Source: a phage. From it: 64,000 bases of DNA. The position numbers and the translations under genes were made by a program. Each line of letters opens with the position of its first letter. Within the stretch, counting starts at the first letter, position 1. Below, one piece after another: positions 1-64,000 of the stretch. The notes under the pieces are model-generated. The model was given only the letters and a program-made list of their open reading frames with translations. It did no database searches and was not told where the DNA came from. The stretch is from the sequence record PV467749.1; one strand, written 5' to 3'.

Positions 1-939
1 GAAGATAACAGTAGTGATTGTCAATTGTATGAAGAGAAAGGTACTGGAAAAGTTTTTATCACTGGTAACACGAAGGCATTCACTGGTGTAACTGATAGAA
101 AAACTTTGTGGACGGACTGTACTACGTGGATAACATCAAGTGGTATTAATGTTTCTGATATAAAATACATGAGTAGTTTTTATGATATGAAGGTGAATTT
201 GATAACAAACGATGGTACATTGTATTGTTGTGGAGCTAACAATATATCGAACATATCATCATTTGGTGATGGCACAAACATTAATTCTTTTAACACATTC
301 AAAAGAGTAGATACTATAACTTCGGTTAAAAAGGCTGTTGGTAACATTTATTTGCGAGAAGATAATACTTTATGGGGTTGTGGTTTTAACTATTACTACC
401 AGTTGGGCACGGGTAATCAAACTTCTATTACTGGGGTGACGATGATTTCTTCGGATGTTATAGATTTTAATGTAAGTTATCAGAGTACATTTTTTATCAA
501 ATCGGATAATAATTTGTACGCTTGTGGTAAACAGTTCGGTGCACAATATGGGAACGAATTTGGTACAGGTGGTACTTCCTCTTCTACTGATATACAATAT
601 AAAACTCCGACATTATTGAGTTCAGGAGTTTATACTCTATATACTTGTGTTGGTAACATGGCATCACATATTGTCAAAGCAGATGAAGTTCTATATGCTT
701 CTGGATCGAATAGGTTTGGGCAATTAGGTGTTGGTAATAATAATAATCAGTACTCCTATACTCCTTCATATACTTCGTTTAATACTTCGTGTAATTTGGT
801 ACGCACTCCATCTGGTTCACTTATACTTACTGACACTTCGAAGTTATATTATTCGGGTGCTTCATTTGTAGTAATGGGTGGTGGTGCTGGACAGAACGTT
901 CTTAATTATACCGAAGTCGATATGTCATTTGTGCAGTAA
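1..939 (+). CDS. RCC1-like beta-propeller repeat protein, array member 1 (5' end outside window)
   Basis: Frame is open from nt 1 (no stop upstream of ORF 25..939); RCC1-type blades YQLGTGNQ, RFGQLGVGNN. Confidence 0.8.
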   Translation, partial: EDNSSDCQLYEEKGTGKVFITGNTKAFTGVTDRKTLWTDCTTWITSSGINVSDIKYMSSFYDMKVNLITNDGTLYCCGANNISNISSFGDGTNINSFNTFKRVDTITSVKKAVGNIYLREDNTLWGCGFNYYYQLGTGNQTSITGVTMISSDVIDFNVSYQSTFFIKSDNNLYACGKQFGAQYGNEFGTGGTSSSTDIQYKTPTLLSSGVYTLYTCVGNMASHIVKADEVLYASGSNRFGQLGVGNNNNQYSYTPSYTSFNTSCNLVRTPSGSLILTDTSKLYYSGASFVVMGGGAGQNVLNYTEVDMSFVQ

Positions 940-1012
940 ATTAATATGCCAGTACTTGAGTACTGGCTTTTCTTTTTGTATTAAATATAGTATAATGAAT
1001 AAGGGAGGAAAT
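940..1012 (+). promoter_or_regulatory. array cassette: terminator hairpin + TAAATA-N3-TATAAT + SD
   Basis: gccagtac-ttga-gtactggc 948-967 then T-run; ttaaatatagtataat; aagggagg before ATG 1013. Confidence 0.7.
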
Positions 1013-2122
1013 ATGTTACCTTTTGTAAGAATGGTTAAGTACGGGAATATTGCACCAGTACCGAAAAAAATAAAGAAAGTTATAGCAGGATATGATAATT
1101 TATATGTACTATATGGTGATGGTTCGCTATATGGTTGTGGAATCAATAACTATCAACAGTTAAATATTGATGGAACTGCTACACAAAATAATTGGGTACT
1201 AATTACCAATGGTGTTAGTAATGCATGGGCTGGTGGATACAATATTTTATATTTGAAAGAAGATAAATTTATAATGCACGGAACTAATGTCTCATTAGGT
1301 TTAGGAAATACTACAATTCCATTAGGTGGAGTAGATGTAACTTCTTCATTCCCAGATATCTCTAATATTAAAATGATATCCATTGGTTTTGATTCAATGC
1401 ACTATGTTAGTGCTGATGGTACAACTGTATATGGAAGAGGTATGAACACAAATGGTTCTGTTGGTTCAGGTAGTACTTACTCACAGAGTACTTTCACTTC
1501 AGTACTGAATAATGGAACTAATCAGGTTATTGATATATTTGGTAACGTTAATAATACAGTGCTTCTAACATCGAATGGTGAGCTTCGAGCATGTGGGACA
1601 AGTGCTTATGGTTCTATAGGAAATGAAACTGGTAAGTGGACATCGTTTGGTTTAAAATTATCTGGCACTAAAATAATGGGTGGTAATGGGTATAGTACGC
1701 TTGCATATACAAATTCGGGAATGTACCACTCAGGGTGGCAGTTAAATGGGGAACTAGGAAATGGTTTAAATACTAACGTACAGGTATATCCATTTCAATT
1801 TAACTCTAAAACGATAGATAGCAAGATAGATAAAATTGCCAAATCATCATCTGGGTCATATGTTAACATGTACTCAACAACAGAAGGAAAGATATATACG
1901 ACAGGTTCGTTTGGTAAAAACGGGTCAACTACTGCATTGAATTTGTTCACCAATACATTAACACTTATAAATTACAATCCAGATACCGCCTCGTTGTATA
2001 CGTGCACAAACTTCAGTGTTGTGTATGATGGTAATGAAACTATTGCTGTAAGTGGTAGTCCTACATATGTACCAGGGGGCGTTGCCGCTAATAGATGGAC
2101 TACAATTCCATTACCCAAGTAA
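1013..2122 (+). CDS. RCC1-like repeat protein, array member 2 (VKYGN subtype)
   Basis: Starts MLPFVRMVKYGNIAPVP at ATG 1013 after SD. ORF-track start 878 reads through the cassette and was rejected. Motif WQLNGELGNG; C-term WTTIPLPK. Confidence 0.85.
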   Translation: MLPFVRMVKYGNIAPVPKKIKKVIAGYDNLYVLYGDGSLYGCGINNYQQLNIDGTATQNNWVLITNGVSNAWAGGYNILYLKEDKFIMHGTNVSLGLGNTTIPLGGVDVTSSFPDISNIKMISIGFDSMHYVSADGTTVYGRGMNTNGSVGSGSTYSQSTFTSVLNNGTNQVIDIFGNVNNTVLLTSNGELRACGTSAYGSIGNETGKWTSFGLKLSGTKIMGGNGYSTLAYTNSGMYHSGWQLNGELGNGLNTNVQVYPFQFNSKTIDSKIDKIAKSSSGSYVNMYSTTEGKIYTTGSFGKNGSTTALNLFTNTLTLINYNPDTASLYTCTNFSVVYDGNETIAVSGSPTYVPGGVAANRWTTIPLPK

Positions 2123-2190
2123 TACTATGCCAGTACTTGATACTGGCTTTTTTTTGATTAAATATAGTATAATGAATAAAGGAGGGAATT
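2123..2190 (+). promoter_or_regulatory. array cassette: terminator + promoter + SD
   Basis: gccagta-cttga-tactggc 2129-2147 + T8; TAAATA 2159-2164, TATAAT 2168-2173, aaaggaggg 2178-2186. Confidence 0.7.
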
Positions 2191-3318
2191 ATGTTACCTT
2201 TTGTTAGAATGTTTGATTATGGGAATATAATCGAAGTTAATAATATAAAGAAAAGTGTTGTTAGTTACACTCTTGAAATGTTTCTAATGCAAGATGGCAC
2301 TGTATATGCACACGGTGAAGATTCAAACTATAATGCGGGTTTAAGTACACAGTTTGTATCGTTAGGAGCAGTTCAACAAATCACAACTGAAGTTGATGAC
2401 TTATGGTTAGGATCGTTTTCCGTTGTTATTAAAGGTGATAAAATATATGGTTCAGGTTCAACATATGCATTCACGAATTCTAATACTTTCCAACAAGGAT
2501 ATACTGACTGGGCTGTGTATTTCACTGGTATAGATGTTACCCAAATTAAAAAAATGTTATGTGGTTATACAGCATTTATATTAATGAAAGACGGAACACT
2601 TTATGGAAGAGGATGGAATCGAAGTGGTGCATTAGGTTTAGGACATAAAAATTATGTTTCAGCGTGGACTGTACTTGACACTAATGTGGATAATATATTT
2701 GGCGGTTACCTTGGCGATACATTGTTTAAGATTAAAAACGATGGAACTGTATATGGTTCAGGTTCAAATAACAGCTTTCAAGTTAAAGCAACATCGGGTG
2801 ATGCAACCACATTTGTTCCATTGTTTGATGATATATCTTATGATATAAAATGCAGTTTTGTTTCTGGTGTTGGTTTTGTAATGATAACATCTGATAATAA
2901 AATATATACAACTGGAACTACTTTTGCTGGTAGTGGTGCACATAGTAAAGTTTTTGATGTTGGTTTTACTATAGGTGATATGAGTAATATATATCATCCT
3001 GATTCGTTGGACTATTCGACTAGTGTTGTATTTTTAATTAATGCAGATACAAACAAACTAATAGCAACTGGGCATACCCCATTTACGGGAAGTAGTTCAA
3101 GTTCCCTTCCATATTTTACAGCATTTCAAGAATTCAATTTTACATCGTTCAATTCGAATACACGATATAGTGGGTCTTTATACTGGAATACATTTTACGA
3201 AGGTAATAATGTATGGATGAATGGATATAATCCTGAAAATACGGGTGGAAAGAATTTCTCATTGTGTTCAATACCGTTAGATACTATTATTACTAAGCAA
3301 ATTGATTTACCTTTTTGA
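2191..3318 (+). CDS. RCC1-like repeat protein, array member 3 (FDYGN subtype)
   Basis: MLPFVRMFDYGN start; GWNRSGALGLGHKN; C-term QIDLPF. Confidence 0.85.
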   Translation: MLPFVRMFDYGNIIEVNNIKKSVVSYTLEMFLMQDGTVYAHGEDSNYNAGLSTQFVSLGAVQQITTEVDDLWLGSFSVVIKGDKIYGSGSTYAFTNSNTFQQGYTDWAVYFTGIDVTQIKKMLCGYTAFILMKDGTLYGRGWNRSGALGLGHKNYVSAWTVLDTNVDNIFGGYLGDTLFKIKNDGTVYGSGSNNSFQVKATSGDATTFVPLFDDISYDIKCSFVSGVGFVMITSDNKIYTTGTTFAGSGAHSKVFDVGFTIGDMSNIYHPDSLDYSTSVVFLINADTNKLIATGHTPFTGSSSSSLPYFTAFQEFNFTSFNSNTRYSGSLYWNTFYEGNNVWMNGYNPENTGGKNFSLCSIPLDTIITKQIDLPF

Positions 3319-3388
3319 ATACTATGCCAGTACTTGATACTGGCTTTTTTTTTGATTAAATATAGTATAATGAATAAAGGAGGGAATT
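3319..3388 (+). promoter_or_regulatory. array cassette: terminator + promoter + SD
   Basis: gccagtacttgatactggc 3326-3344 + T-run; gattaaatatagtataatgaataaaggaggg. Confidence 0.7.
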
Positions 3389-4510
3389 ATGTTACCTTTT
3401 GTTAGAATGTTTGATTATGGAAATGAAGTACCTGATCCTAGTTCGGGATTTCGAATAATAAGTACAGGAGACGCATTACTATTAATTACTAAGAGTGGTG
3501 ATTTGTGGGTGCGTGGTTATAACCGTTATGGTAAGTTAGGTATAGGTAATAACACCACTACCTATGTACTTGATTGGACGAAGGTTAGAAGTGATGTAAA
3601 GTTTGCGTGTGGTAGTGGATTGGTAACAGTTATCTTTACTAAGGATAATCGCATATTGTACTGTGGTGACAAATGGTTTGAAACGGGTGGTGTTGGTAGT
3701 GCACAGATTTTCACATGGACAGATGTTACGCATCAATTTGGGGTAGTAGATTTGAGTACTGTAAGGGATATGAAAATATCTTATTACGCGATTGGGTTAG
3801 TTACTACTAATAATCAATTATACGCTAAGGGATTTGATAATAACCTATCATTTGGTGGGGTTACTAATAAGGCGACTGCTGTGTTTATTGCGAATAATGT
3901 ACAAGAGTTGTATACGAGTTTAGTTAGTACTATCTACGTTGATACAAGTGGTATATTACATCGTTGTGGCATGAGTGATAACGGTTCGTTGGGTAATAAT
4001 GGTAGTTTAACTTCGTATCTAAGTTATTCACAGACTGGTATGACGATTAAGGACATTGGAATGATGACTACGAACACTGGGTTATTATATACTGATTCTA
4101 GTGCACGCACGAGATATTTTATTGCTGGACAGAACTTGAATAAACAGATGGGTAATGCGGCGGGTGCGAGTGCCATTACGAGTACTTACACAGAGCTTTC
4201 TGGTAGTGTTGATAAGTTTTCTTCTTTATGGGAGAATGATGGGATATTGATGACATTTGCTGTGGGTAAGAACACTAATCAGTTATTTTATGCTGGGATG
4301 AATACTTTTCATGCGAGTGGTGGTGAATCTTCATATGCGGATACATATGAGTTAGTCCCGATGGTGTTTAATGACATACAGGAAGTGTTATGTGCACAGC
4401 GTTTATCGGTGGTACATGATTCTACGAAGTGGTATTACTGTGGTGATGCTAATTCAATGTATGGTTTACCGGACGTAAGTACTTTTACTGAGTTACCGTT
4501 GCCCTTTTAA
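3389..4510 (+). CDS. RCC1-like repeat protein, array member 4
   Basis: MLPFVRMFDYGN start; GYNRYGKLGIGNNT; C-term FTELPLPF. Confidence 0.85.
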   Translation: MLPFVRMFDYGNEVPDPSSGFRIISTGDALLLITKSGDLWVRGYNRYGKLGIGNNTTTYVLDWTKVRSDVKFACGSGLVTVIFTKDNRILYCGDKWFETGGVGSAQIFTWTDVTHQFGVVDLSTVRDMKISYYAIGLVTTNNQLYAKGFDNNLSFGGVTNKATAVFIANNVQELYTSLVSTIYVDTSGILHRCGMSDNGSLGNNGSLTSYLSYSQTGMTIKDIGMMTTNTGLLYTDSSARTRYFIAGQNLNKQMGNAAGASAITSTYTELSGSVDKFSSLWENDGILMTFAVGKNTNQLFYAGMNTFHASGGESSYADTYELVPMVFNDIQEVLCAQRLSVVHDSTKWYYCGDANSMYGLPDVSTFTELPLPF

Positions 4511-4581
4511 TAATAGGTCAGTACTCAAGTACTGGCTTTTCTTTTTGATTAAATATAGTATAATGAATAAAGGAGGGAATT
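4511..4581 (+). promoter_or_regulatory. array cassette: terminator + promoter + SD
   Basis: gtcagtactcaagtactggc 4517-4536 + T-run; same promoter/SD string. Confidence 0.7.
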
Positions 4582-5763
4582 ATGTTACCTTTTGTTAGAA
4601 TGTTTGATTATGGGAACGTCGTTGAGCCACCTGTGGGTACACGTTATACCTGTAGTGACTATAGTGCGACTTATAGTTTAATAAAGGATGGTGTGTTATA
4701 TGTATCTGGGATGAATAACTATTATCAGTTAGGTAATAACACTAACGTAACACGTTACAACGAGTGGTTAAAAGTTCCAGAGACTGATAGTGTTAAGTTT
4801 TGTAGTACTGGTTATAGTCAGACAATGTATCTGACTAACAATGGTAGGATAATGATAGCAGGTGAAGATCCTACTTCCAGTGCGACTTCGGTAAGTGTAA
4901 AGGTTTGGACGGATATAACTTCTAGATTTCGTGCAGTTGATACTAAAAAGATTGTTTATATTTCAATAGAACGCTTTGGTGTAATGATGATCATGGAAGA
5001 TGGTTCAGTATGGGCGTGTGGTGTTGATAATACTGGTTGGAGTGGACAAGGGAGTAAGACTGTTGGTTTCTTTACTTTCAGACAAATATACACCGGAAGT
5101 GCAGGAAGTGCAGTTGCTTGTACTGCTGGTACTGGTACTGCGAGAATTCTGTTAGCTAATGGAACAATCTTGTCCTCTGGTACTAATACATATCATCAAT
5201 GTAATGCTAGTACTAATCCGGCTGTTCTAACATTCACTGAATCATTCCCTGGGGTTGATCCTTCATTGATATATCAAATCAAGATGTGTAATAACAACTG
5301 TATTATATTTTTGAGTGATAAGAGATATTACGGTACTGGCTGGGGAAGTTTTGGTGCATTGGGTGATGGTGATATTACGGGTTCGAATAATAAATTCTAT
5401 GCAGGTACATTGTCAGTTGCTCCTAAAAACATGCGTGCTTATATGTCGTATCTATGTAGTTCTTCTGGGGATTCTAGTATGTACATAGGCGATGATAATT
5501 TCATATACACCTGCGGTTATCGTGGGAGGAACTTAATAAATGCCACTACAGATATTGGTACGTTCACGAAATGCATTCAAAGTGCACAAGGATACAAGAA
5601 TGGACTTATATATAGTGGGAATTATTGTGCTGTAGTTTTTGATCCAGATTTGGGTTCAGGAATGTCATATGCGGTTTCATCACCAAAATTGAATTCTCCA
5701 GCACCACAGGCTAGTGTTCCAGCATTGGGTATGAGTTCGTTACAATCTATCATTTTACCATAA
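4582..5763 (+). CDS. RCC1-like repeat protein, array member 5
   Basis: MLPFVRMFDYGN start; MNNYYQLGNNTN, GWGSFGALGDGD. Confidence 0.85.
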   Translation: MLPFVRMFDYGNVVEPPVGTRYTCSDYSATYSLIKDGVLYVSGMNNYYQLGNNTNVTRYNEWLKVPETDSVKFCSTGYSQTMYLTNNGRIMIAGEDPTSSATSVSVKVWTDITSRFRAVDTKKIVYISIERFGVMMIMEDGSVWACGVDNTGWSGQGSKTVGFFTFRQIYTGSAGSAVACTAGTGTARILLANGTILSSGTNTYHQCNASTNPAVLTFTESFPGVDPSLIYQIKMCNNNCIIFLSDKRYYGTGWGSFGALGDGDITGSNNKFYAGTLSVAPKNMRAYMSYLCSSSGDSSMYIGDDNFIYTCGYRGRNLINATTDIGTFTKCIQSAQGYKNGLIYSGNYCAVVFDPDLGSGMSYAVSSPKLNSPAPQASVPALGMSSLQSIILP

Positions 5764-5837
5764 ATGATACCAGTACTGAAATACGTACTGGTATTTTTTT
5801 GTAAATACATTATAATTATTATATGGAGATTTTAGTT
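5764..5837 (+). promoter_or_regulatory. variant array cassette: terminator + promoter + SD
   Basis: accagtac-tgaaatac-gtactggt 5769-5792 + T7; gtaaatacattataat; ggag before ATG 5838. Confidence 0.65.
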
Positions 5838-6968
5838 ATGTTACCTTTTGTTAGAATGTTTGATTATGGGAATACAGTGGCTGCTCCCACTGGTATAAAG
5901 GATTTCCAAGCAAATGGAAGCCACTGTATGGCACTAACATATAGTGGTGAGATGTGGGCTTATGGTACAAGTACAAGTGGATCAATGGGAACCGGATTCA
6001 CGGTGGGTGCTGCTGATAAGGGTTGGTACAAGTCTAACATTAGTAATGTTAAATCATTCAGTTCTAATATGCAGACTAGCACAGTGGCTTTGACAAATGA
6101 TGATAGAGTGCTAGTTTGTGGCTCAACTAGATTTGACAAATTCAGTACTCCAGATATTGCATCATCTAACCTTGATTGGTTGGATGTTACTGATCATATT
6201 CCACAGGAAGTTATTGATGCTGGGATGAAGCAAGTTATTAACCACGCATATTATGTTGCCATTTTTACTGAAAACAATCTATTATATAGTGTGGCATTAT
6301 CTTTGGGTAATACTAGTACTATAATAGATAGAACATGGCGAAGAAATACATTTGGTGATATACAAGTTGAACGTGTTGTTTCGTTGACACAAACCCCAAG
6401 TGGTCCTTTGTGTATAGTTCAAGATGCTGCCGGATACCAGTATGGTATTGGATATAATGGTAATAAGATTATTGATAATACTTCCACTAATTCATATTCT
6501 GTATATACCAAAATGGGTACACTTCCTTACAATGAATTTGCCATATCGAATAGCGGGAAATTCAGTTCAGCGGTATTATCAGATGGGAGAAGTGTTTATA
6601 GTGGTACATTTCCAAAGTCATTCAATGATAGTTTTGGTTCATTTTTGAAAGTTGGTGCGGTATCAAATACTGTGTTTGGTTTAGATGCAAAAAATATGCG
6701 TGGTCAATATGGTCAAAATCAATTACCAATTGCGTCGGCTGATAACAATGCAAGTAATGGCGTTGTGAGCCTTCGTAATGTTCCAGCGGGAACACAAACG
6801 AAAGACATTCGATTTATATGCGGAAATGATGTAAAGAACGTTTATATCATATACACAAATGAAGACGGCATTAGTTCATTTTATGGATTGGGACCAAACT
6901 TTGATCAAAATTCCTCAGCATATGCACAATTCGTCAAAGTGGATTTGCCAGGGGCATTACTAAATTAA
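5838..6968 (+). CDS. divergent propeller-repeat protein, array member 6
   Basis: MLPFVRMFDYGN at internal Met of ORF 5823; weaker repeats (GTSTSGSMGTG); C-term FVKVDLPG. Confidence 0.8.
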   Translation: MLPFVRMFDYGNTVAAPTGIKDFQANGSHCMALTYSGEMWAYGTSTSGSMGTGFTVGAADKGWYKSNISNVKSFSSNMQTSTVALTNDDRVLVCGSTRFDKFSTPDIASSNLDWLDVTDHIPQEVIDAGMKQVINHAYYVAIFTENNLLYSVALSLGNTSTIIDRTWRRNTFGDIQVERVVSLTQTPSGPLCIVQDAAGYQYGIGYNGNKIIDNTSTNSYSVYTKMGTLPYNEFAISNSGKFSSAVLSDGRSVYSGTFPKSFNDSFGSFLKVGAVSNTVFGLDAKNMRGQYGQNQLPIASADNNASNGVVSLRNVPAGTQTKDIRFICGNDVKNVYIIYTNEDGISSFYGLGPNFDQNSSAYAQFVKVDLPGALLN

Positions 6969-6978
6969 GGAGAGAAAT

Positions 6979-8181
6979 ATGTTACCTTTTGCGAGGATGG
7001 TTAAGTTCGGGAATATTGCACCAGGGCCAGAACCAATAGAGTTCTCAAATGTTTTACAACAACATTATACAAACTGTATGTATCTACATAGCCCAACTAA
7101 TACTTTATATGGTTATGGTAGTAATAACTTTTATCAATTTGGTCTTGGGAATTCAGCAGCAGTTGCGTCATTTACAGTACTTGCAACGCGATGTGCAGCC
7201 TTTTGGCTTGGTGTTCAAGGTTCATTGATGATTGATTTGGATAATAAAATATACTACACTGGGTCGGTTGGTGCATTTTCTGATTATGGAGATGCAACAC
7301 CTGTTAATGGTTATTTGAGAACATGGACTGATGTTACTGCTTCATTTAATAAAATTGGTGTTATGGCTAATATGATCAAGAGTGTATATATAGGTGAAAG
7401 TACTAGAATATTATTAACCGATGGTAGAGTAATTGCGTGTGGAAGAAATACCAATGGTGAATGTGGGTCTGGTAATCGAAATTCCATACCTACACTAACA
7501 GTTATGACTAATATGGGTGAAGTTACACATATGGCATGTTCATTACAAGGAACGCACTATATTAAATCAAATAAAAAGGCATGGTTTTGTGGTAAGGATA
7601 ACTTCGGTGAAAGTGGTTGTGGTGCTAGTTCTATGATATATTTGAACAAATATGTGATGAGTGATGTCGAACATATTAGTACTACATACGATGTTACTTG
7701 GTGGTTTACTACTGGTGGGCCTGTATATTATAGCGGGGCTAACAGTACTGGACAAGCTGGTAATGGTACGACTACATCGGTAAATCAGCTAACACCAATT
7801 AGGAACACATCGGTCACGGTTGATGTAAGTAAGTACAGTACTTTTATTTGTCCAAGTAATATGGGAAATGCATCAATTGGTGCACCTATGGCACAATACG
7901 CACCATATGTTAGAAGTAGTGGTGCTAACGGATACGGTCAAGAAGGTAATGGAACTAATACATTAGTTAGGACTTGGAATATTTTTAATCTTAATGCAAT
8001 AAGTGGTGGTTATGACAATGTTCTTATGGCATCTAAAGATTGGAGCAGAACCATAATAATTACTAAAGATTATAAATTATATGCATGTGGTGGCTGGAAT
8101 GGTAATGGTGGTAGATTGCCTGATGGCACTTATAGTATTACTACACTAACATTAATGCCAACGCAGTTATGGCAACAATAG
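6979..8181 (+). CDS. RCC1-like repeat protein, array member 7 (VKFGN subtype)
   Basis: MLPFARMVKFGNIAPGP. SD aaggagag lies 10 nt after the stop of member 6, with no cassette. GSNNFYQFGLGN, GRNTNGECGSGN, GANGYGQEGNG. Confidence 0.85.
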   Translation: MLPFARMVKFGNIAPGPEPIEFSNVLQQHYTNCMYLHSPTNTLYGYGSNNFYQFGLGNSAAVASFTVLATRCAAFWLGVQGSLMIDLDNKIYYTGSVGAFSDYGDATPVNGYLRTWTDVTASFNKIGVMANMIKSVYIGESTRILLTDGRVIACGRNTNGECGSGNRNSIPTLTVMTNMGEVTHMACSLQGTHYIKSNKKAWFCGKDNFGESGCGASSMIYLNKYVMSDVEHISTTYDVTWWFTTGGPVYYSGANSTGQAGNGTTTSVNQLTPIRNTSVTVDVSKYSTFICPSNMGNASIGAPMAQYAPYVRSSGANGYGQEGNGTNTLVRTWNIFNLNAISGGYDNVLMASKDWSRTIIITKDYKLYACGGWNGNGGRLPDGTYSITTLTLMPTQLWQQ

Positions 8182-8189
8182 GAGGAATT

Positions 8190-9299
8190 ATGTTACCTTT
8201 TGTAAGACTATTTGATTATGGGAATATTACCTCTGGTCCTAAAAATATAATTAAAGTTGGTGCTTCTACTCAAGGTCAATTCGTATTGACTGATTCACAT
8301 GAATTGTATTACATAGGCAGAAATCAAGGTGGTGAATCTGGAAATGGTAATAAAAACACGGTATCTTCTTGGACATTAGTAAGTGCAGATGTTTCTAATT
8401 TTTTCACTGGAGGACGAACACTTGTTATTATTAAAAATGACAATACGATATGGACATCAGGTGAAACATTTTGGTTCACATCATCATCAACAACTTCTTA
8501 CAGTACTACATTAGTTGATAGAACGGAGTGGTTTACAAATACAATTCCTGTGAATCAAATTGCTAATATTGTATGCAATGGTGGTGTAATATTTGTACTC
8601 AGTTCAAGTTCAGTACTCTATGGTGCTGGGGCTAATGGATACCGTGGTGTATTGGGGATTGGTTCTTCATCAATATATACATTAACACTATGTGCTTCTA
8701 ATGTGCGTAAAGTTATGTCTACTCCTAATGATAGTATGTATATTAGCATAGATAATAAGTTATATAGTTCAGGGTGGAATGACCGTGGATTACATGGCAC
8801 AGGGAACAGAACACAAGTTAACATTTGGGGACTGCGTAGTTCTGGTGTAATAGATGCAGCTATTGGTGGACATACACTCAATTACTATAATGGTACATCA
8901 TATTTCACATGTGGTACAACTCCAAACTTTCTTAGTTCAGATTCAACTACATTCAAAGCAGTTCCTGTAAGTACTTTACCTAATAATTCACCTTTGTTTA
9001 TGACAAATTCAGAGGCAACAAGCACGGCTACGCAAATTATATTAACTAGTGCATATCAGAAAGGTATTGGGGGAAACCGTGGTTTGGGATTAAACAATTC
9101 TCAAACGGGTGCTATCTATAGTGCTGCTAATTTACAATTACCTGTAGAAGTTAGTGAGATTAGTGATGTTGCTTTTAGTGACGGATTAACATCATTATTA
9201 ACCAAAGACGGGAATGTATATAGTACTGGATCGTATTACGCCATTCCAGGTGCAAGTGCAGATGTTGCAGTCTTTACTAAAATTGATTTACCAAAATAA
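8190..9299 (+). CDS. RCC1-like repeat protein, array member 8
   Basis: MLPFVRLFDYGN at ATG 8190 after taggagg; no cassette upstream; GRNQGGESGNGNKN, GWNDRGLHGTGN; C-term FTKIDLPK. Confidence 0.85.
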   Translation: MLPFVRLFDYGNITSGPKNIIKVGASTQGQFVLTDSHELYYIGRNQGGESGNGNKNTVSSWTLVSADVSNFFTGGRTLVIIKNDNTIWTSGETFWFTSSSTTSYSTTLVDRTEWFTNTIPVNQIANIVCNGGVIFVLSSSSVLYGAGANGYRGVLGIGSSSIYTLTLCASNVRKVMSTPNDSMYISIDNKLYSSGWNDRGLHGTGNRTQVNIWGLRSSGVIDAAIGGHTLNYYNGTSYFTCGTTPNFLSSDSTTFKAVPVSTLPNNSPLFMTNSEATSTATQIILTSAYQKGIGGNRGLGLNNSQTGAIYSAANLQLPVEVSEISDVAFSDGLTSLLTKDGNVYSTGSYYAIPGASADVAVFTKIDLPK

Positions 9300-9369
9300 C
9301 ATAATGCCAGTACAGAGTACTGGCTTTTCTTTTTGGTTAAATATAGTATAATGAATAAAGGAGGGAATT
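9300..9369 (+). promoter_or_regulatory. array cassette: terminator + promoter + SD
   Basis: gccagtacagagtactggc 9306-9324 + T-run; ggttaaatatagtataatgaataaaggaggg. Confidence 0.7.
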
Positions 9370-10539
9370 ATGTTACCTTTTGCAAGAATGGTTAAGTACG
9401 GGAATATTGCACCTGTTCGCCCTGAAATAAAGAAATTGGATGGTAGTCAATCACATGTCGGATTACTATATAGTACTGGTAATATGTATATGCGTGGTTC
9501 TGGTTCGAACTACCAGTTAGGTACAGGTGATGCTAGTGATGTATTAGATGGTTGGGTACATGTACCCTATGAAGTTGATGATTTTTGGGCGTGTGTGTTC
9601 GGTACATTAATAAAGACTAAAGACAATAAGTTATATTGTGCAGGACTATCAATGGGTGGATATTTTGGTGCTAGTGGTTCATATGTTAACTGGACTGAAG
9701 TAACTTCATTATTTGTGGGTATTAACGTCTCACAAATAAAGAATATAGAATTTACATCAGCGAATACTTCCGGTAGTACACTAATATTGATGTTAGATGG
9801 TAGTTTATATGGGTTCGGCATGAACAGTAGATCAGAGTTAGGTGTTACAAACAAAGTCGTATCTCCTATTCTTATAGATACTGGGGTAAGTTCAATAGGA
9901 GCACATAAATTAGGTGGTTCATCGTTCCATTATATAAAAGACGGTAAGTACTACAGATGTGGAACATCGGTTGGTCGTAATATTGGGATTTCTTCTTTGA
10001 CTACTTTTACTGAATTGAGTATTCCTGATAACGTTATATCTATGCAAATATTATATGACAACGTACAGTTATTATGTTTAGGAAGTTCTGGATATAGTAT
10101 CTATATGGCTGGTTCGAATAATTATGGTGGAAGAGGTGTTGATGGTAGTACTATTTACTCTACATTCAGGAAAATAGATCTTACTGGATTTGGTGTTGTT
10201 CCCAGTGAAATACTATTTGAAAATGCAGGGAATGGTTATGTTAATATATCAACTGATAGTACTGGCATATATACATGTGGTGGTGGTGCTGGTGTTAATG
10301 GTTTAGGTAGACCGAGTAATGTGATATCAAGTTCACAGTTGGGTTTGATTGAGTTCAGTACAGGATTATACCCAGCAAATATAAGTCGTGTATTTTCACA
10401 GAGTTCATCTTCTGTTATATATTGTATAGTTAATAATGAATTGTACTGGGCTGGGAGTAATTCATATTTTACTGATCAAACTACAAATACTGGTACACAA
10501 TTTTCATTTATTAAGATGAAGGATATGCCTTCTGCTTAG
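9370..10539 (+). CDS. RCC1-like repeat protein, array member 9 (VKYGN subtype)
   Basis: MLPFARMVKYGNIAPVRP; GSGSNYQLGTGD, GMNSRSELGV. Confidence 0.85.
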   Translation: MLPFARMVKYGNIAPVRPEIKKLDGSQSHVGLLYSTGNMYMRGSGSNYQLGTGDASDVLDGWVHVPYEVDDFWACVFGTLIKTKDNKLYCAGLSMGGYFGASGSYVNWTEVTSLFVGINVSQIKNIEFTSANTSGSTLILMLDGSLYGFGMNSRSELGVTNKVVSPILIDTGVSSIGAHKLGGSSFHYIKDGKYYRCGTSVGRNIGISSLTTFTELSIPDNVISMQILYDNVQLLCLGSSGYSIYMAGSNNYGGRGVDGSTIYSTFRKIDLTGFGVVPSEILFENAGNGYVNISTDSTGIYTCGGGAGVNGLGRPSNVISSSQLGLIEFSTGLYPANISRVFSQSSSSVIYCIVNNELYWAGSNSYFTDQTTNTGTQFSFIKMKDMPSA

Positions 10540-10612
10540 ATTTTATGCCAGTACTTGATACTGGCTTTTCTTTTTTGTATTAAATATAGTATAATGAATA
10601 AAGGAGGGAATT
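10540..10612 (+). promoter_or_regulatory. array cassette: terminator + promoter + SD
   Basis: gccagtacttgatactggc 10547-10565 + T-run; canonical promoter/SD string. Confidence 0.7.
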
Positions 10613-11792
10613 ATGTTACCTTTTGTTAGATTATTTGATTATGGGAATATTGCCCCTGTCAAAGATACTGTTGTTAAAATTAATAGTGATGAAAATTCAA
10701 TAAGCGTATTATACAGTGATGGGTCATTATATATGCGTGGACGGAAACCAATCAGCAAAAATGGGAGTTACTGGTTCATCTTTTTTGGATAGATGGGTTT
10801 TATGTCCTTATAGTGTTGATGATTTCTGGAGTTCTCTATATTGTACTATAATTAGAACAAAACAAGGGGAATTGTACTATAGTGGGACTAACTCAGTTTT
10901 TGGTATATCATCTTCGGTTTCAACATGGACTCGTTGTGAATCATATTTTGGATCTATTTCTCCGAGTTCAATAAAAGATATAAAAATAACATCATCAACC
11001 GGAACTAACAATTCCATGTTAATACTAACAAGTGACGGGCAGTTATATGGTATAGGCATGAATGGTGCAAGTGAATTGGGTACAGCAACTGCACCAATTA
11101 CATCTCCACTCTTAATTGACACTAGTGTATCTGCAATTGCATCTAGTGAAATGAGCAGAAACTTTCACTATATAAAAGATGGTATATATTATCGTTGTGG
11201 TGAGAATACTTTTTATCAATTAGGAACCGGTGATAATAAGCCTATTACTAGTTTTACTGCATTGAATCTTGGTAGTTCTCATGTAATTGCAGTACAAGCT
11301 ACACGATGGGTAACACGTTTGATTGTTCAAAGTAGTACATCTGCTTTGTCTTTAATGGCGGCTGGTTGGAACACACAGTTGACTATAGGTGGTTCTGAAA
11401 ATACTGGTATAATAAGGTCATCATTTACTACCAATCCCTATACCGATATAACAGCAAATTCATTCGATAAACTTTCACCAGTATCCTATGTTAATGCAAT
11501 AAAATCCAGTACTAACATTATTAATACGAATGGTAAGGGATATAATTCTAATGGTGCTGGTTTAGGCCGCAACGCAGTCTCTGGGAATTATGGTTCAATA
11601 TTACCAATAGAATTCTTTGATGATAGTGTTGACTTATCACATGTTGAGTGGTTTGGTACGATTGGTAATGGTTCAGTATCGGTAGTTAGTATAGGTGAGG
11701 ATTTATACTGGACTGGAAACCCTGGGTATTTTACTGAACAAGGTGAGACTGGATATATATATAAATTCAAAAAGTGCGTTCCTTTTAGATAA
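10613..11792 (+). pseudogene. RCC1-like array member 10, frame disrupted near nt 10739-10743
   Basis: ATG 10613 gives MLPFVRLFDYGNIAPVKD...SLYMRG and then hits a stop at 10790. The homologous continuation (GNQSAKMGVTGSSFLDRWVLCPYSVDDFW, compare member 9) is in the +1 frame, i.e. ORF 10716..11792. Confidence 0.7.
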
Positions 11793-11863
11793 ACACAATG
11801 CCAGTACTTGAGTACTGGCATTCTTTTTGATTAAATATAGTATAATGAATAAAGGAGGGAAAT
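11793..11863 (+). promoter_or_regulatory. array cassette: terminator + promoter + SD
   Basis: gccagtacttgagtactggc 11800-11819 + T-run; canonical string. Confidence 0.7.
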
Positions 11864-13042
11864 ATGTTACCTTTTGTTAGAATGTTTGATTATGGAAATA
11901 TTACACCTGGTGTACCAACACCAAAAGATTTCTTTTTGGATGTATCATCTGGCAAACCTACTATGTTGATGCTTTTGGATAACGGCGAAGTATGGGGTTG
12001 TAGTAATGATGGACAACTATTAGGTTTAAACACTACCGCGTCAGCATACGGTAAGCCATACTTTGTTATGGAAAATGTTAAGTTAATGTTCGCGTCAGTG
12101 TGGGGGACATTACTTATCACTAACGATAATAAAGTGAAGTACACTGGCAGACAAACCATGTTTAATGGTTCATCAAATTATTGGAGTACTTTTCAAGATT
12201 TTACAACGAAGTACACTGCTGTTGGTATTGACATAAGTACTATAGAAAAAGTTGGATTCAATACTGGTACATTATTCCTACGCACAACTAATGGTGATTT
12301 ATGGGGTCATGGAAATAACGCTAATGGTTATTTCGGAAAAGGAAATACCGTGGCGAATTACACACCAACCAAGATCAAGACTAATACATTAGATTTTTGG
12401 TTAACTAATGGGAATGCAATTGTACAAACTGGCACTAAAGAATTCTATGCTACTGGTGATAATTATTATTATCAAATGGGTGTTACGACTACTGGTAATA
12501 TAACAACATGGACACAGATTTTTAAGGACGCTACTGATGATCCTGAGTTTGAATATAATGCAATGCGAACAAGTCAAGCAACATTAATACTTTACGGTAA
12601 AGGAACTACATTCTACGCAAGTGGGAGAAACTATATGAGTTCATGGGGTGTATCTGGAGCACCAGTGGATGTTAATACTACACTATATAAAGGTACGTTA
12701 CCATTTGTACCCGGTGATTTAACATATTTTTATGCTGGTCGAGAACAAGCATATTGGACTAACTTAATCATTGATACTAATGGAGTTCTGTACATATCTG
12801 GAACAAAAGATGGGGGTGGTGGTTCAAATGCACCTATATTTGAAGTATTACCGACCCCAAGTAGTGCAGTTGGGTTCAAATGTGGCACAGCAACACGTTC
12901 TTATGCTATAATGGATTGTACTGGCAATCAATTTATGTACGCACGTGGTACAGCTTTGTCAGACCCTGCTGGCTTTACACCAATGAGTACACCATTAAAT
13001 CATACATGGACACACATAACAGATTTTAAATTTAACCGATAA
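11864..13042 (+). CDS. RCC1-like repeat protein, array member 11
   Basis: MLPFVRMFDYGN; GNNANGYFGKGN, GDNYYYQMGV. Confidence 0.85.
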   Translation: MLPFVRMFDYGNITPGVPTPKDFFLDVSSGKPTMLMLLDNGEVWGCSNDGQLLGLNTTASAYGKPYFVMENVKLMFASVWGTLLITNDNKVKYTGRQTMFNGSSNYWSTFQDFTTKYTAVGIDISTIEKVGFNTGTLFLRTTNGDLWGHGNNANGYFGKGNTVANYTPTKIKTNTLDFWLTNGNAIVQTGTKEFYATGDNYYYQMGVTTTGNITTWTQIFKDATDDPEFEYNAMRTSQATLILYGKGTTFYASGRNYMSSWGVSGAPVDVNTTLYKGTLPFVPGDLTYFYAGREQAYWTNLIIDTNGVLYISGTKDGGGGSNAPIFEVLPTPSSAVGFKCGTATRSYAIMDCTGNQFMYARGTALSDPAGFTPMSTPLNHTWTHITDFKFNR

Positions 13043-13112
13043 TATTATGCCAGTACTTGATACTGGCATTTCTTTTTGTATTAAATATAGTATAATGAAT
13101 AAAGGAGGAAAT
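13043..13112 (+). promoter_or_regulatory. array cassette: terminator + promoter + SD
   Basis: gccagtacttgatactggc 13049-13067 + T-run; canonical string. Confidence 0.7.
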
Positions 13113-14288
13113 ATGTTACCTTTTGCAAGAATGGTTAAGTACGGAAACAGAGTTCCAGCACCTTCAGGTGTTATGAAGATAAGTACATCTCCATCACATA
13201 TGGGTATGTTATTTGATAGTGGTAACTTATATCTACGTGGAAATGGTGCACACTATATGCTAGGAAATAATAGCACTGCGTATGTGCAAAATGGGTGGGT
13301 ACAGTGTCCATATAAAGTTTCTAATGTTTGGTGCTTCTTTGCAGCAACAATTATACTTACGACTGACGGAGAATTTTACTTAGCTGGTCAAATGGGTTAT
13401 GTCGGTGTATCTGCATCACCAGTTCCTGGATGGACTAATATCACATCTTTATTGTCTACAATACCAGCACTTACTACAGTAGTAGATATAGCTGCTACTG
13501 AAACTACTGCATCAAATGGTGCGTTATTGATTTTGTTAAGTAATGGGGACTTATATGGGATTGGGCGTAATACAGGAGGTGCATTGGGTGTTACTGGTAG
13601 AAAAACAACGCCAATTCAGATTGCTACTGGGGTTACTATAATTGCGGGAACAACGGCTGGGGATGCTTTCCATTATGTTAAAAATAATCAATACTACAGA
13701 TGTGGGAATAACGCAAGTTACAACTTAGGATCAGGTTCTTCTAACCTTTCGACATTTACGGTAAGTACTGATATATCGGGAACAGTTATTGGTATTTCAT
13801 GTACTACATTAACGACTTCAGTACTTACATCTAATAGAAATAATATTAATGTATATACGGCTGGAAAAAACACTGATTATTGTTTAGGAATAGGGTATGG
13901 CGACACTACTAGTATCATGAGTCCATTTAGTGCCACTCCCGCAATTAGTGGTATTATACCAGATGCTGGGTCGATGAACAATCACAGTTTGAATTATTTT
14001 ATAATGGCAATGACACAGAATGGTAAACTTTATACATGTGGTAGTGGTGTTCCTCTTGGTTGGCCTGTTACTACTGCATCAGAAAGATCTTATTACCACC
14101 AGGTACAATATGAGGATATGGATGTTGCACCAGATGTTAATGCATTTTCAGTTCAAGGTGGTTCTGGTGTGTTATACGCGTTAGTGGGGACTAATGAGGT
14201 GTACTGGTGTGGTAACGGGTCTATGTTTCAGGAACAGAGTCCAGGTACACAACAAGTTAAAATGAAGAAAATGATTTTACCAGAATAA
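13113..14288 (+). CDS. RCC1-like repeat protein, array member 12 (VKYGN subtype)
   Basis: MLPFARMVKYGNRVPAP at Met23 of ORF 13047; GRNTGGALGV, GNNASYNLGSG; C-term KKMILPE. Confidence 0.85.
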   Translation: MLPFARMVKYGNRVPAPSGVMKISTSPSHMGMLFDSGNLYLRGNGAHYMLGNNSTAYVQNGWVQCPYKVSNVWCFFAATIILTTDGEFYLAGQMGYVGVSASPVPGWTNITSLLSTIPALTTVVDIAATETTASNGALLILLSNGDLYGIGRNTGGALGVTGRKTTPIQIATGVTIIAGTTAGDAFHYVKNNQYYRCGNNASYNLGSGSSNLSTFTVSTDISGTVIGISCTTLTTSVLTSNRNNINVYTAGKNTDYCLGIGYGDTTSIMSPFSATPAISGIIPDAGSMNNHSLNYFIMAMTQNGKLYTCGSGVPLGWPVTTASERSYYHQVQYEDMDVAPDVNAFSVQGGSGVLYALVGTNEVYWCGNGSMFQEQSPGTQQVKMKKMILPE

Positions 14289-14367
14289 AATGTGAAATAC
14301 AATGCATGTACTCAGTACTGGCTTTTCTTTTTTATTAAATATAGTATAATGAATAAAGGAGGGAAAT
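14289..14367 (+). promoter_or_regulatory. array cassette with degenerate hairpin
   Basis: gcatgtactcagtactggc 14303-14321 (two mismatches in the stem) + T-run; canonical promoter/SD. Confidence 0.55.
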
Positions 14368-15717
14368 ATGTTACCTTTTGTTAGAATGTTTGATTATGGG
14401 AATACAGTAGATGTTCCAACTGTAAAGAAATTCGACTCCATTGGTATGGGTCATGATAGGAATGGTGGTGGTAATTGGTTTGGTGCAATATTAGCATCAA
14501 ATGGAAATTTATATGGTATTGGTCAAACAAAATATGTTTCTTTTGGTATAACACCAACCAATGGTACAGGAATTGAATTAGTACGAAAAAATGTAAACAA
14601 TTTTTGGCTACTATCAAATGGAATAATAGTTAAAGATAATGATGGTTCATATCATTTTTGTGGTGTATATGCAAATGGAATATTCACACATTCAAGTATA
14701 ACTACAGCACCTTTTATAACAAATGGTTTTATAAATGTATCTTCTTATTTTTCTAACGTAGGTGAAGTTGTGGAAATGGTATTCTGTGGTGGATATGATA
14801 AAGGTCCAGCAACATCATTAACCCCAGCATACACTTCAAAATATAGTTGTATTTTGGCAGCATTGAACACTAATGGTGAAATCTGGTATATGGGTTTGTC
14901 GATACAAGGTTTAATAAACAACTCCACATCAGATTACTACTTTACTTCTTTTACTAAAGATAATCAATTGACACAAAAAGCAGTTTCATTAAGATGCACA
15001 ATAGACATGTCACATAATAATGTGTATTTTGTTGGTAATAGACCTGTACTTTATGCCAAATTAGAAGATGGTACAATCGTAGGCAAGGGATATAATATAC
15101 GATATGGTATACAAAAACCAGCTAGTACAAACCAAGTGATTAAAACGTGGACTACAGTGGCTGTAATCGGAACAGCAGATGATTTTGATGCAACAAACGA
15201 AGGCATGATGTACTGCTCAAATTCACAACTATATCGCTGTGGTAATGGTGGTGGTTTTTCTTTCTGGAATGGTACAAGTAGTGTGTATTATATGGGCTAC
15301 AACGTTGGTATGTTTCTAATCGGTGCGAATGACGTCAACCGTGTAGCGGGTGGTTTTAACGTCCTAACTACAGGGATTAAAGATGATGTAGGTATAAATG
15401 TACCAACTTCATCCAGTACCAAAATACGAATGAACTACTGTGGAACTGTAATTTTTGAACCCGGAACAACATCAATATATAAAGCACATGGTGTTTATAG
15501 TGATTACTATGCTAGTCCTTCATGGCAAGCGGGAGCAGTCGCTTCATTTACATATGAAGACATTGGTATTAAAATCAAAGATGCTATGTATGTTGGTGGT
15601 ACTCTTGGGTTTACAACATATGGATTATTAGTGGTTAGTACTGAAGGTAAGGTATATTGGAGAGGTGTGTACAACGGTGTAACATATAAAACACTCACAG
15701 AAATACATTTGTTGTAA
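14368..15717 (+). CDS. divergent propeller-like protein, array member 13 (449 aa)
   Basis: MLPFVRMFDYGN start. The body is poorly RCC1-like; membership rests on the N-terminus and the cassette. Confidence 0.75.
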   Translation: MLPFVRMFDYGNTVDVPTVKKFDSIGMGHDRNGGGNWFGAILASNGNLYGIGQTKYVSFGITPTNGTGIELVRKNVNNFWLLSNGIIVKDNDGSYHFCGVYANGIFTHSSITTAPFITNGFINVSSYFSNVGEVVEMVFCGGYDKGPATSLTPAYTSKYSCILAALNTNGEIWYMGLSIQGLINNSTSDYYFTSFTKDNQLTQKAVSLRCTIDMSHNNVYFVGNRPVLYAKLEDGTIVGKGYNIRYGIQKPASTNQVIKTWTTVAVIGTADDFDATNEGMMYCSNSQLYRCGNGGGFSFWNGTSSVYYMGYNVGMFLIGANDVNRVAGGFNVLTTGIKDDVGINVPTSSSTKIRMNYCGTVIFEPGTTSIYKAHGVYSDYYASPSWQAGAVASFTYEDIGIKIKDAMYVGGTLGFTTYGLLVVSTEGKVYWRGVYNGVTYKTLTEIHLL

Positions 15718-15787
15718 TATAGTGCCAGTACTCTGTACTGGCTTTTCTTTTTGTATTAAATATAGTATAATGAATAAAGGAGGAATT
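15718..15787 (+). promoter_or_regulatory. array cassette: terminator + promoter + SD
   Basis: gccagtactctgtactggc 15723-15741 + T-run; canonical string. Confidence 0.7.
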
Positions 15788-16939: not shown

Positions 16940-16945
16940 AATAAT

Positions 16946-16965
16946 GCCAGTACTCAAGTACTGGC
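16946..16965. terminator. bidirectional hairpin between convergent genes
   Basis: gccagtac-tcaa-gtactggc, A-rich before and T-run after. Confidence 0.7.
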
Positions 16966-16972
16966 ATTTCTT

Positions 16973-54236: not shown

Positions 54237-54301
54237 ATAGTTCTCCATATAGTATGGAGTATTTATTTTCAAGAAAAATGTTATTTCTAAGAATATATTT
54301 G

Positions 54302-54372
54302 TGGTCAATATTAGAATCGAACTAATGACTCAGACTTACAAGATCCGTGTTATACCATTTAACTAATCAACC
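54302..54372 (-). tRNA. tRNA-Thr (UGU)
   Basis: Hand-folded 71-nt cloverleaf: GGTTGAT/ATTGACC acceptor, GTTA/TAAC D stem, CGGAT-CTTGTAA-GTCTG, ATTAG-TTCGATT-CTAAT. Confidence 0.85.
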
Positions 54373-56052: not shown

Positions 56053-56080
56053 TTTAATTTCCTATTGTAATTTCGTTTTG

Positions 56081-56153
56081 CGACTCTGGAGGAACTCGAA
56101 TCCCCAACCAATTAATTAACAGTTAATCGCACCACCTATTGTGCTACAGAGTC
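56081..56153 (-). tRNA. tRNA-Asn (GUU)
   Basis: 73-nt cloverleaf: GACTCTG/CAGAGTC, GCAC/GTGC, ATTAA-CTGTTAA-TTAAT, GGGGA-TTCGAGT-TCCTC. Confidence 0.85.
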
Positions 56154-56699: not shown

Positions 56700-56936
<237 letters not shown>

Positions 56937-57701: not shown

Positions 57702-57726
57702 ATTATATCAGTACTGAACTATTTAG

Positions 57727-57730
<4 letters not shown>
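57702..57730 (-). promoter_or_regulatory. sigma70-type promoter
   Basis: Minus sense TTGACT-aaatagttcagtactga-TATAAT; near-identical copy at 58124-58151. Confidence 0.7.
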
Positions 57731-58152
<422 letters not shown>

Positions 58153-58160: not shown

Positions 58161-58321
<161 letters not shown>

Positions 58322-58325
<4 letters not shown>

Positions 58326-58482
58326 ATTCGTACCAGTAGTTCAATTAAGTACATTTCATATGCTGGATCGTTGATAAGTTTATCATACAGATGTGGCTCT
58401 GAAATGAATTCCCAATGATACTTTAGCCATTTACCGATACCCGAATATCTAAAATTAATATCATTCATCCATTCTTCATGTG

Positions 58483-58486
<4 letters not shown>
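58322..58486 (-). CDS. 54-aa MTHEEW-family protein
   Basis: MTHEEWMNDINFRYSGIGKWLKYHWEFISEPHLYDKLINDPAYEMYLIELLVRI; ATGA overlaps at both ends. Confidence 0.6.
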
Positions 58487-58647
<161 letters not shown>

Positions 58648-58754: not shown

Positions 58755-58870
<116 letters not shown>

Positions 58871-62423: not shown

Positions 62424-62445
62424 TACTTCTCCTATTGAATGTATT

Positions 62446-63257: not shown

Positions 63258-63322
63258 TAATATATCCTCAGTTTGTATTTTATTAAAAAAGCCCCATCAA
63301 CATTGATGAGGCGGGAAATCAA

Positions 63323-63532
63323 TTACTTACGGTTTGCTTTACGCAGTTCAGAAAGTTCTTCTTGTAGACTTTTCTTCCATGCAATTAGATGAGCAAAACG
63401 GATTGGCCTTGCACCAGTACCGTGGAATACTGCGAGAGCTTCTTCAGCTTGATGAATCTGGAACTGAATGTAGTTCACAGTGCGGTCGAAGTCGGTGATA
63501 TCTAGTACTTGTGCGTTAGTTTCTTTAGCCAT
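63323..63532 (-). CDS. hypothetical protein
   Basis: 69 aa; downstream hairpin cctcatca-atgt-tgatgggg + T6 (minus sense). Confidence 0.6.
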   Translation of the reverse strand: MAKETNAQVLDITDFDRTVNYIQFQIHQAEEALAVFHGTGARPIRFAHLIAWKKSLQEELSELRKANRK

Positions 63533-63649
63533 TTTTAATACCCTTTTATTTCTTTTTTATGAAAAACCCTCATCATTGAGGAATGGTTTGCATTTTTACA
63601 TCTGCCGATAATATACATTATATCATGCTTTTCAGCGTTGTCCCAAAAA

Positions 63650-63946
63650 TTAATTATTTTTTAGAACAAATTTCACAACTGGTAACTCTGTTTCGTTTGA
63701 TTCGGATTCATTATATCCGTTCTTCGTGAGAACGTCAATAACTTTTTTAGAATCGATTGTAAATTTATCAAGTTCAGTATAACGATAATAACCAATGGTC
63801 TGACTGAACTCATACTCACCTGGACGCTGACGGCAACATGTTTGTGTTTCTGACATAATTGCATTGATTAGATAATAAGATTCAGTACTATCATTGTTTG
63901 GTACATAAATCTTACCATCAAAATGAATCACTTCATGCTTATTCAT
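63650..63946 (-). CDS. hypothetical protein
   Basis: 98 aa; downstream hairpin cctca-atga-tgagg + T5 (minus sense). Confidence 0.6.
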   Translation of the reverse strand: MNKHEVIHFDGKIYVPNNDSTESYYLINAIMSETQTCCRQRPGEYEFSQTIGYYRYTELDKFTIDSKKVIDVLTKNGYNESESNETELPVVKFVLKNN

Positions 63947-64000
63947 ACAGTGAGTTAATCTCCGATTGAAGAATTGAAATAATTTCCTTTTGAAGACCTG

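Follow-up and report, generated by a model that had tools for sequence, protein, structure and literature searches.

Results

The phage DNA analyzed here is a stretch of 64,000 nucleotides (sequence record PV467749.1, positions 1–64,000; hereafter the window), and the element under study is the palindromic hexamer AGTACT, which is dispersed along its whole length. Megablast matches the window to Escherichia phages WPEC3 and fEgEco12 at 98–99% identity and to 121Q and PBECO4 at about 84.5%, which makes it part of a RaK2-like jumbo coliphage of the genus Asteriusvirus. RCC1-like paralogs in a tandem array on the + strand occupy the first 18.9 kb, and the rest of the window is occupied by about 100 small, mostly uncharacterized genes on the − strand. 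We called 121 open reading frames (ORFs), which cover 88% of the DNA, and a Pfam scan of 108 window ORFs returned RCC1, sigma-70, HNH, and AAA domains and nothing else.

An exact count over the 64,000 bases finds 184 copies of AGTACT (2.9 per kb), with 150 in ORFs, 33 in non-coding DNA, and 1 at an ORF edge; the first sites lie at 749, 951, 959, 1472, 1487, 1501, 2132, 3329, 3755, and 3926 and the last at 62247, 62477, 63208, 63504, and 63884. Base composition predicts 21.8 copies (0.34 per kb), making the excess 8.4-fold. An earlier note on this DNA had judged the hexamer about 10-fold over-represented from some 28 sites in four sub-windows, a composition of roughly 64% A+T, and an expected density near 0.3 per kb. 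The same four sub-windows contain 8 + 15 + 3 + 4 = 30 sites and the G+C content is 35.1%, which bears out the note's counts, composition, and expected density; the excess is real. Markov models of first, second, and third order predict 20.3, 40, and 76 copies, and in a ranking of the 4096 hexamers by z-score AGTACT comes first, directly ahead of its partial forms CAGTAC and GTACTG. The excess rises stepwise with the length of the word, from 2.5-fold for GTAC through 4.2-fold for AGTAC and 8.4-fold for AGTACT to 26-fold for CAGTACT and 55-fold for CAGTACTG, of which there are 37 copies where 0.7 are expected. The maximal-order Markov model that the earlier note had proposed as a check predicts 151 copies, an observed/expected ratio (O/E) of 1.22. 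This low ratio does not refute the excess because the 5-mers AGTAC (275 copies) and GTACT (289 copies), both 4.2-fold over-represented, are mostly the hexamer itself. With the paralog array left out (18861–64000), 127 copies are found and 15.2 expected, and ten pooled loci of the clade, 396 kb of non-redundant DNA, hold 1002 copies against an expected 135.

The excess is not a by-product of coding. When synonymous codons are shuffled within each gene, so that protein and codon usage are kept, 43.9 ± 5.9 sites are expected in ORFs and 150 are observed (z = 18); shuffling codon order predicts 27.1 ± 5.0. Each reading frame is enriched 3–4-fold, frames 0, 1, and 2 holding 72, 27, and 51 sites where the synonymous shuffle gives 26, 6, and 12, and non-coding DNA is enriched as well (33 sites, 2.7 expected), at a density of 4.4 per kb compared with 2.7 per kb in coding DNA. 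Ser-Thr is spelled AGT-ACT in 72 of 149 cases (23 expected) and Val-Leu is spelled GTA-CTN in 75 of 148 (28 expected). These two dipeptides are themselves 1.4–1.5-fold more frequent than amino acid frequencies predict (149 versus 101 and 148 versus 108, respectively). The separate tallies by frame and the search for synonymous bias, both suggested in the earlier note, thus dispose of its option of a dipeptide or codon side effect, as does the conservation of silent positions described next.

Comparison with 121Q over 40 kb of orthologous sequence (84.5% identity) indicates that the sites are under purifying selection. Of 117 aligned sites, 84 are intact (72%), compared with 805 of 1706 phase-matched neighboring hexamers used as controls (47%; P = 3e-7). 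Identity is 0.90–0.95 at all six motif positions and 0.857 in the flanks, and it is not raised at positions −1 and +6. Silent third positions of the same codons are conserved in 89.2% of cases within the motif and in 75.9% outside it (P = 3e-4). Losses and gains are balanced at 33 and 31. At the distance between genera (RaK2 versus an Erwinia phage, 71% identity), only 23% of the sites (9 of 39) coincide as against 15% for all hexamers, a difference that is not significant; the positions thus change over time, but the density is maintained. If selection and mutation balance with S = ln(8.4) = 2.1, sites should be lost at a relative rate of 0.29; the observed rate is 0.45–0.56, which suggests that each copy is weakly selected, as in codon bias or uptake sequences. 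Mobile endonuclease genes, considered as recent arrivals that might be poor in the word, were set aside, their density being near normal (22 sites, 26 expected). One gene of 121Q annotated as an "endonuclease" (1.46 kb; locus L007, 6416–7879) has no AGTACT where the local density predicts 4.3, and it may be a recent acquisition.

The preferred form of the site is [C>A>T>>G]AGTACT[G>T>A>>C]. Over the 1002 pooled sites, position −1 is C in.40, A in.28, T in.23, and G in.09, and position +6 is its mirror image (G.41, T.27, A.24, C.08), with no information further out. A perfect palindrome with symmetric flanks fits a symmetric dimer on duplex DNA better than an RNA signal. Word and flank preferences being two-fold symmetric, there is no strand polarity of the kind that characterizes Chi or the FtsK-orienting polar sequences (KOPS). 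The sites are scattered roughly at random: in the window, the distances between them, 345 bp on average, follow a nearly exponential distribution, and no 1-kb bin is empty. Early, replication, and structural regions have similar densities. Under-dispersion is seen in the window (variance/mean 0.65, P about 0.01–0.02), but even spacing was dropped as a property of the word, because 121Q, WPEC3, and the Erwinia phage do not show it and because in the window it comes in part from the tandem paralog array. A hairpin or pair structure was likewise rejected: there are 15 AGTACT pairs within 20 bp where 10 are expected, all accounted for by terminators.

All sampled lineages of enterobacterial RaK2-like phages (Asterius-, Alcyoneus-, Mimas-, and Eneladusvirus, and XaC1) have an excess of about 6–9-fold. 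The O/E is 6.9 in RaK2, 6.8 in GAP32, 5.8 in a structural region of WPEC3, 6.1 in Erwinia phage pEa_SNUABM_19, and 9.2 in XaC1, which is reported on Xanthomonas. There is no excess in Pseudomonas phage PA5oct (O/E 0.22), in Vibrio jumbo phage 2.275.O (0.46), or in 58 environmental relatives with about 45% terminase identity (pooled O/E 0.85). A T4-like Krischvirus, an unmodified coliphage, has 0 copies where 13 are expected, and a 100-kb sample of Escherichia coli K-12 has 6 where 23 are expected, a density of 0.06 per kb and a 4-fold under-representation. The full-text literature that we consulted does not mention an AGTACT excess in these phages; we found no published description of it.

Other palindromes go the opposite way. 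In the window, 26 of the 64 palindromic hexamers have no copy, GATC is at half its expected count, and GCGC is absent where 61 copies are expected; GCGC is also absent from 396 kb of clade DNA (the window and loci L001–L004, L008, L092, and L094–L096; 352 expected). E. coli has 7.15 GCGC per kb, and the relatives without AGTACT excess, PA5oct and Vibrio phage 2.275.O, retain GCGC. AGTACT itself, at 184 copies versus 21.8 expected, shows the reverse of restriction-site avoidance, and with such losses around it and the complete purge in the T4-like coliphage, the earlier note was right to call the enrichment of a palindrome unusual. Several other words, unrelated to AGTACT, are enriched 4–6-fold in the clade (CACCAG/CTGGTG, GCACCA, and ACCAGT/ACTGGT); in the pooled loci, about 13% of ACCAGT copies run on into AGTACT, and a second palindrome, GTGCAC, is mildly enriched, 2–3-fold. 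The Chi octamer of E. coli, GCTGGTGG, has 5 copies in the window where 0.4 are expected (1229 on the + strand; 17493, 24846, 35377, and 41345 on the − strand) and 7 in the locus from the Erwinia phage (0.17 expected), where all lie on a single strand.

A minority of sites occupy recurrent regulatory positions. The RCC1-like array (995–18825, +) has about 16 members of 357–449 residues. Two of its 15 junctions lack a terminator, and all 13 terminator hairpins carry AGTACT in the stem, as the earlier note had claimed. These stems, typically GCCAGTACTnnAGTACTGGC followed by a T run, account for about 20 sites and belong to a tandemly duplicated cassette. The hairpins are usually followed by a conserved cassette composed of a promoter-like TTAAATATAGTATAATGAATAAAGGAGG and a ribosome-binding site. 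At 948–967, after an RCC1-like paralog, two AGTACT form the stem of GCCAGTACTTGAGTACTGGC, which precedes a T run, whereas GCCAGTACTTGATACTGGC at 2129–2147 has one site intact and one decayed; GCCAGTACTTGATACTGGC recurs at 3326–3344 and 10547–10565. Two sites are also present in GTCAGTACTCAAGTACTGGC (4517–4536), AATGCCAGTACTTGAGTACTGGCATT (11797–11822), AATGCCAGTACTCAAGTACTGGCATT (16943–16968), and TCCAGTACTATTATAGTACTGGA (18832–18854), the last at the end of the array. The remaining hairpins are GATACCAGTACTGAAATACGTACTGGTATT (5766–5795), GCCAGTACAGAGTACTGGC (9306–9324), ATGCCAGTACTTGATACTGGCAT (13047–13069), the weak GCATGTACTCAGTACTGGC (14304–14322), and GCCAGTACTCTGTACTGGC (15724–15742), all on the + strand like the others.

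The earlier note had also placed AGTACT near the −10 element of several promoters, and the word does lie in the spacer, at the same place beside the −10, in 5 of 15 consensus promoters of the form TTGAC(A/T)-N15–18-TATAAT. These five sigma-70-type promoters, all on the − strand and with spacers of 16–17 nucleotides, are TTGACA-aactcattcAGTACTg-TATAAT (24346–24373), TTGACA-aacgtttgtAGTACTg-TATAAT (35211–35238), TTGACA-taagatatcAGTACTg-TATAAT (39173–39200), TTGACT-aaatagttcAGTACTga-TATAAT (57702–57730), and TTGACT-aaatagttcAGTACTg-TATAAT (58124–58151). A second promoter family with a near-identical spacer, TTGACT-tcggtcagccctttttgc-TATAAT, starts at 22200, 26822, 29864, and 33459 (−) and is distinct from the AGTACT-bearing one. 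In all, fixed positions of this sort apply to about 25 of the 184 sites, so that the suggestion of a regulatory or structural word stands for the terminator-stem and promoter-spacer copies and fails for the rest.

Also on the − strand are genes for tRNA Thr(tgt) (54301–54372), Asn(gtt) (56080–56153), Ser(gct) (56847–56936), and Ser(tga) (58755–58844). Of these, Ser(gct) reads AGT and Thr(tgt) reads ACN, which are the two codons of AGTACT when it lies in frame 0, and AGT makes up 34% of Ser codons. Three tandem paralogous ORFs of 54 residues, each beginning MTHEEWM, lie at 58161–58647 (−).

Discussion

The enterobacterial RaK2-like jumbo phages carry AGTACT, preferably preceded by C and followed by G, as a signature word throughout their genomes. 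The explanation that we favor, and to which we give roughly even chances, is that the word, weakly selected and effective through its density, is recognized by a two-fold-symmetric protein that binds or modifies DNA and is probably encoded by the phage. The earlier note had listed such a recognition site among its options, and the palindrome, the mirror-image flanks, the genome-wide scatter, the selection on all six bases, and the restriction to one clade all favor it. Weak positive selection on each copy would hold the word at about 2.5–3 copies per kb, or about 1000 per genome, and a dimeric, two-fold-symmetric protein, probably a product of the phage clade itself, would act on duplex DNA along the whole genome, with a benefit that rises with the density of sites and not with any single site. 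The word is about 40 times scarcer in host DNA, and AGTACT can therefore mark phage DNA as self. It might serve to protect or modify that DNA, or to bring in a nicking, topological, recombination, or replication activity at close spacing. The copies in terminator stems and promoter spacers would be convenient placements and not the main purpose.

A number of observations weigh against this explanation. The search for a reader turned up a candidate at most, and the Pfam scan of 108 ORFs detected no recognizable methyltransferase or classical DNA-binding domain in the window. Two methyltransferases were found in RaK2, gp194 (C5, DNMT3-like) and gp447 (a small PF05869 Dam-type protein); neither has known AGTACT specificity, and their characterization gave no link to the word. 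Selection for even spacing is inconsistent, with a variance/mean of 0.65 in the window and 1.2 in the orthologous region of 121Q. A candidate reader, and only a candidate, is the 194-residue protein encoded at 46633–47217 (−), for which a PD-(D/E)XK nuclease fold is predicted with confidence. The structures closest to it are those of a homing endonuclease, Hjc resolvases, and several type II restriction enzymes; the protein has no sequence match to solved structures and matches no defense-system model. This candidate is restricted to the clade except for a 33%-identical homolog in the Vibrio phage, which itself lacks the excess, and co-occurrence is in any case weak evidence because many clade-specific genes share the same distribution. 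The reader may instead be a host factor common to the hosts. We made no use of a "restriction enzyme" annotated in phage CRJP21 (OQ708376). In that record, the names "restriction enzyme," "endonuclease V," and "protein kinase" stand on genes of the wrong size, which suggests that the labels are shifted.

Ten restriction enzymes, ScaI not among them, cut the virion DNA of fEgEco12 as predicted, so that global base modification is absent from it (PMC13070987). The phage is thus exposed to type II restriction, and with about 1000 ScaI-type sites, some protection at AGTACT is implied. In a specific version of the favored explanation, a phage methyltransferase would modify AGTACT, and the methylated or hemimethylated site would be the signal, as GATC and Dam are for SeqA and MutH, for instance in strand discrimination or replication timing on a 350-kb genome. 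A six-base signal of this kind would need enrichment because it must reach a GATC-like density, and 1 site per 345 bp resembles the density of GATC in E. coli. The demand for a shield from ScaI-type restriction, the full purge of AGTACT from the unmodified T4-like coliphage (0 versus 13), the several orphan methyltransferases encoded in the clade, and the conservation of the PD-(D/E)XK nuclease there are all consistent with such a mark, but no methyltransferase of AGTACT specificity was found, and any protection is not at GTAC, as CGTACG and GGTACC are absent. We consider a methylation mark unlikely, if worth entertaining. A quite unlikely, more elaborate scheme is a two-word code that takes the place of base modification, in which phage DNA, rich in AGTACT and free of GCGC, is told apart from host DNA by proteins that read AGTACT to license or protect it; GCGC in host DNA could then expose it to attack by other phage or host activities, with the phage left unharmed. 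On the branch that separates Vibrio phage 2.275.O from the enterobacterial RaK2-like phages, the excess of AGTACT and the loss of GCGC arise together.

Among the remaining alternatives is a site for a protein of the enterobacterial host. The site of the nucleoid-occlusion factor SlmA, GTGAGTACTCAC, has AGTACT at its center (positions 4–9, A4 G5 Y6 R7 C8 T9), and SlmA also requires G1, T2, and a purine at position 3 (PMC3020112). Replicating phage DNA could titrate or activate such a factor, for instance to block division, and the trait is indeed confined to phages of Enterobacterales and missing from Pseudomonas and Vibrio relatives. The core of the SlmA site fits, but the flanks do not: the phage sites have C at −1 (.40), with G halved to 9% from a background of 18%, and are at background at −2 and −3 over the 1002 sites. 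Moreover, GAGTACTC occurs once in the window, XaC1 retains its 9.2-fold excess although it is reported on Xanthomonas, and titration needs no high local density, all of which makes a host-factor site very unlikely. A likeness to LexA and TrpR half-sites was discarded as well, the arrangement being unfit. We also give little credence to a mutational or repair drive, whereby sequence-specific repair or gene conversion turns near-cognates into AGTACT without benefit from the sites. A drive would produce excess, apparent conservation, and clade specificity too, and one-off neighbors are mildly raised (TGTACT/AGTACA 2.7-fold, GGTACT 2-fold). This neighbor excess is also the expected remains of decaying sites, however, and the depletion of donor neighbors that short-patch repair would leave was sought and found in none but AGGACT/AGTCCT (0.42). 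Protection is equal over the six positions, whereas short-patch repair corrects a single type of mismatch; amino acid sequences have moved toward Ser-Thr and Val-Leu, and known repair biases such as those at CCWGG/CTAG in E. coli yield far smaller word excesses.

A role at the RNA level, with AGUACU as a transcript nuclease site or structure, or a mere use as a promoter and terminator building block, would suit the thirteen terminator stems, the five promoter spacers, and the higher density in non-coding DNA. Yet about 85% of sites lie within ORFs, scattered over all frames, a palindrome with mirror-symmetric flanks is unexpected for a strand-specific RNA signal, hairpin-capable close pairs are barely above chance, and the terminator copies come from a tandemly duplicated cassette; we judge such a role highly improbable. 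For a codon, dipeptide, or composition artefact, one could cite the maximal-order O/E of 1.22 and the fact that AGT, ACT, GTA, and TAC are common codons in the window. The probability of an artefact is nonetheless practically nil: it is already refuted by the two shuffles, and the enrichment of non-coding DNA, the raised silent-site conservation within the motif, and the O/E of 0.85 in the 58 relatives of similar G+C also contradict it.

Here, one palindrome is raised about 8-fold, to about 1000 copies per genome, in a clade that carries the loss of restriction-type palindromes expected of phages to an extreme, and the excess has been kept over at least five lineages at the cost of bent codon choice and even of amino acid sequence. 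It provides a simple diagnostic signature of the clade. It would also imply a protein-DNA system that operates along the whole 350-kb genome in a widespread group of phages that are therapeutic candidates, and a need for these phages to survive ScaI-type restriction. Further work on the word could reveal a new kind of self-marking of DNA by a virus without modified bases.

Several known systems share features with AGTACT. The uptake signal sequence (USS) of Haemophilus and the DNA uptake sequence (DUS) of Neisseria are short words present at about 1 per kb or more in all reading frames, under weak selection or drive per copy with turnover, and their inverted pairs often form terminator stems. 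The strong, frame-independent excess of AGTACT and its conservation above that of the surroundings are those of a selected word of the USS/DUS or Chi type. USS and DUS differ in being non-palindromic words of 9–12 bases that serve transformation uptake into bacteria and reside on bacterial chromosomes, whereas AGTACT is a 6–8-bp palindrome in a lytic phage, to which the uptake process is inapplicable. Chi, which is read by RecBCD, and other architecture-imparting words such as KOPS are likewise over-represented, act along DNA in a density-dependent manner, and separate self from foreign; they are asymmetric host words oriented to replication, in contrast to the symmetric AGTACT, which is 4-fold under-represented in the host. 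GATC is a short palindrome with a dense genome-wide scatter (about 1 per 250–350 bp) that works through the Dam methyltransferase and its readers; it reaches that density without enrichment and is half-depleted in this phage, and methylation of AGTACT is putative. In the SlmA site of E. coli, which is likewise palindromic and is the target of a dimeric helix-turn-helix protein, the central six bases are AGTACT (PMC3020112); the outer G1, T2, and purine at position 3 are missing or disfavored in the phage sites. ScaI/Eco255I-type sites are the same hexamer, and the rest of the phage genome shows textbook palindrome avoidance, from which the 8-fold excess of AGTACT differs in sign. Finally, the hydroxymethylcytosine of T-even phages, with Alc and EndoII/IV, may follow a common logic, by which phage functions tell phage DNA from host DNA. 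The T-even mark is a base substitution, whereas the DNA of fEgEco12 is cut normally by ten enzymes, and any mark here would therefore be a sequence word (PMC13070987).

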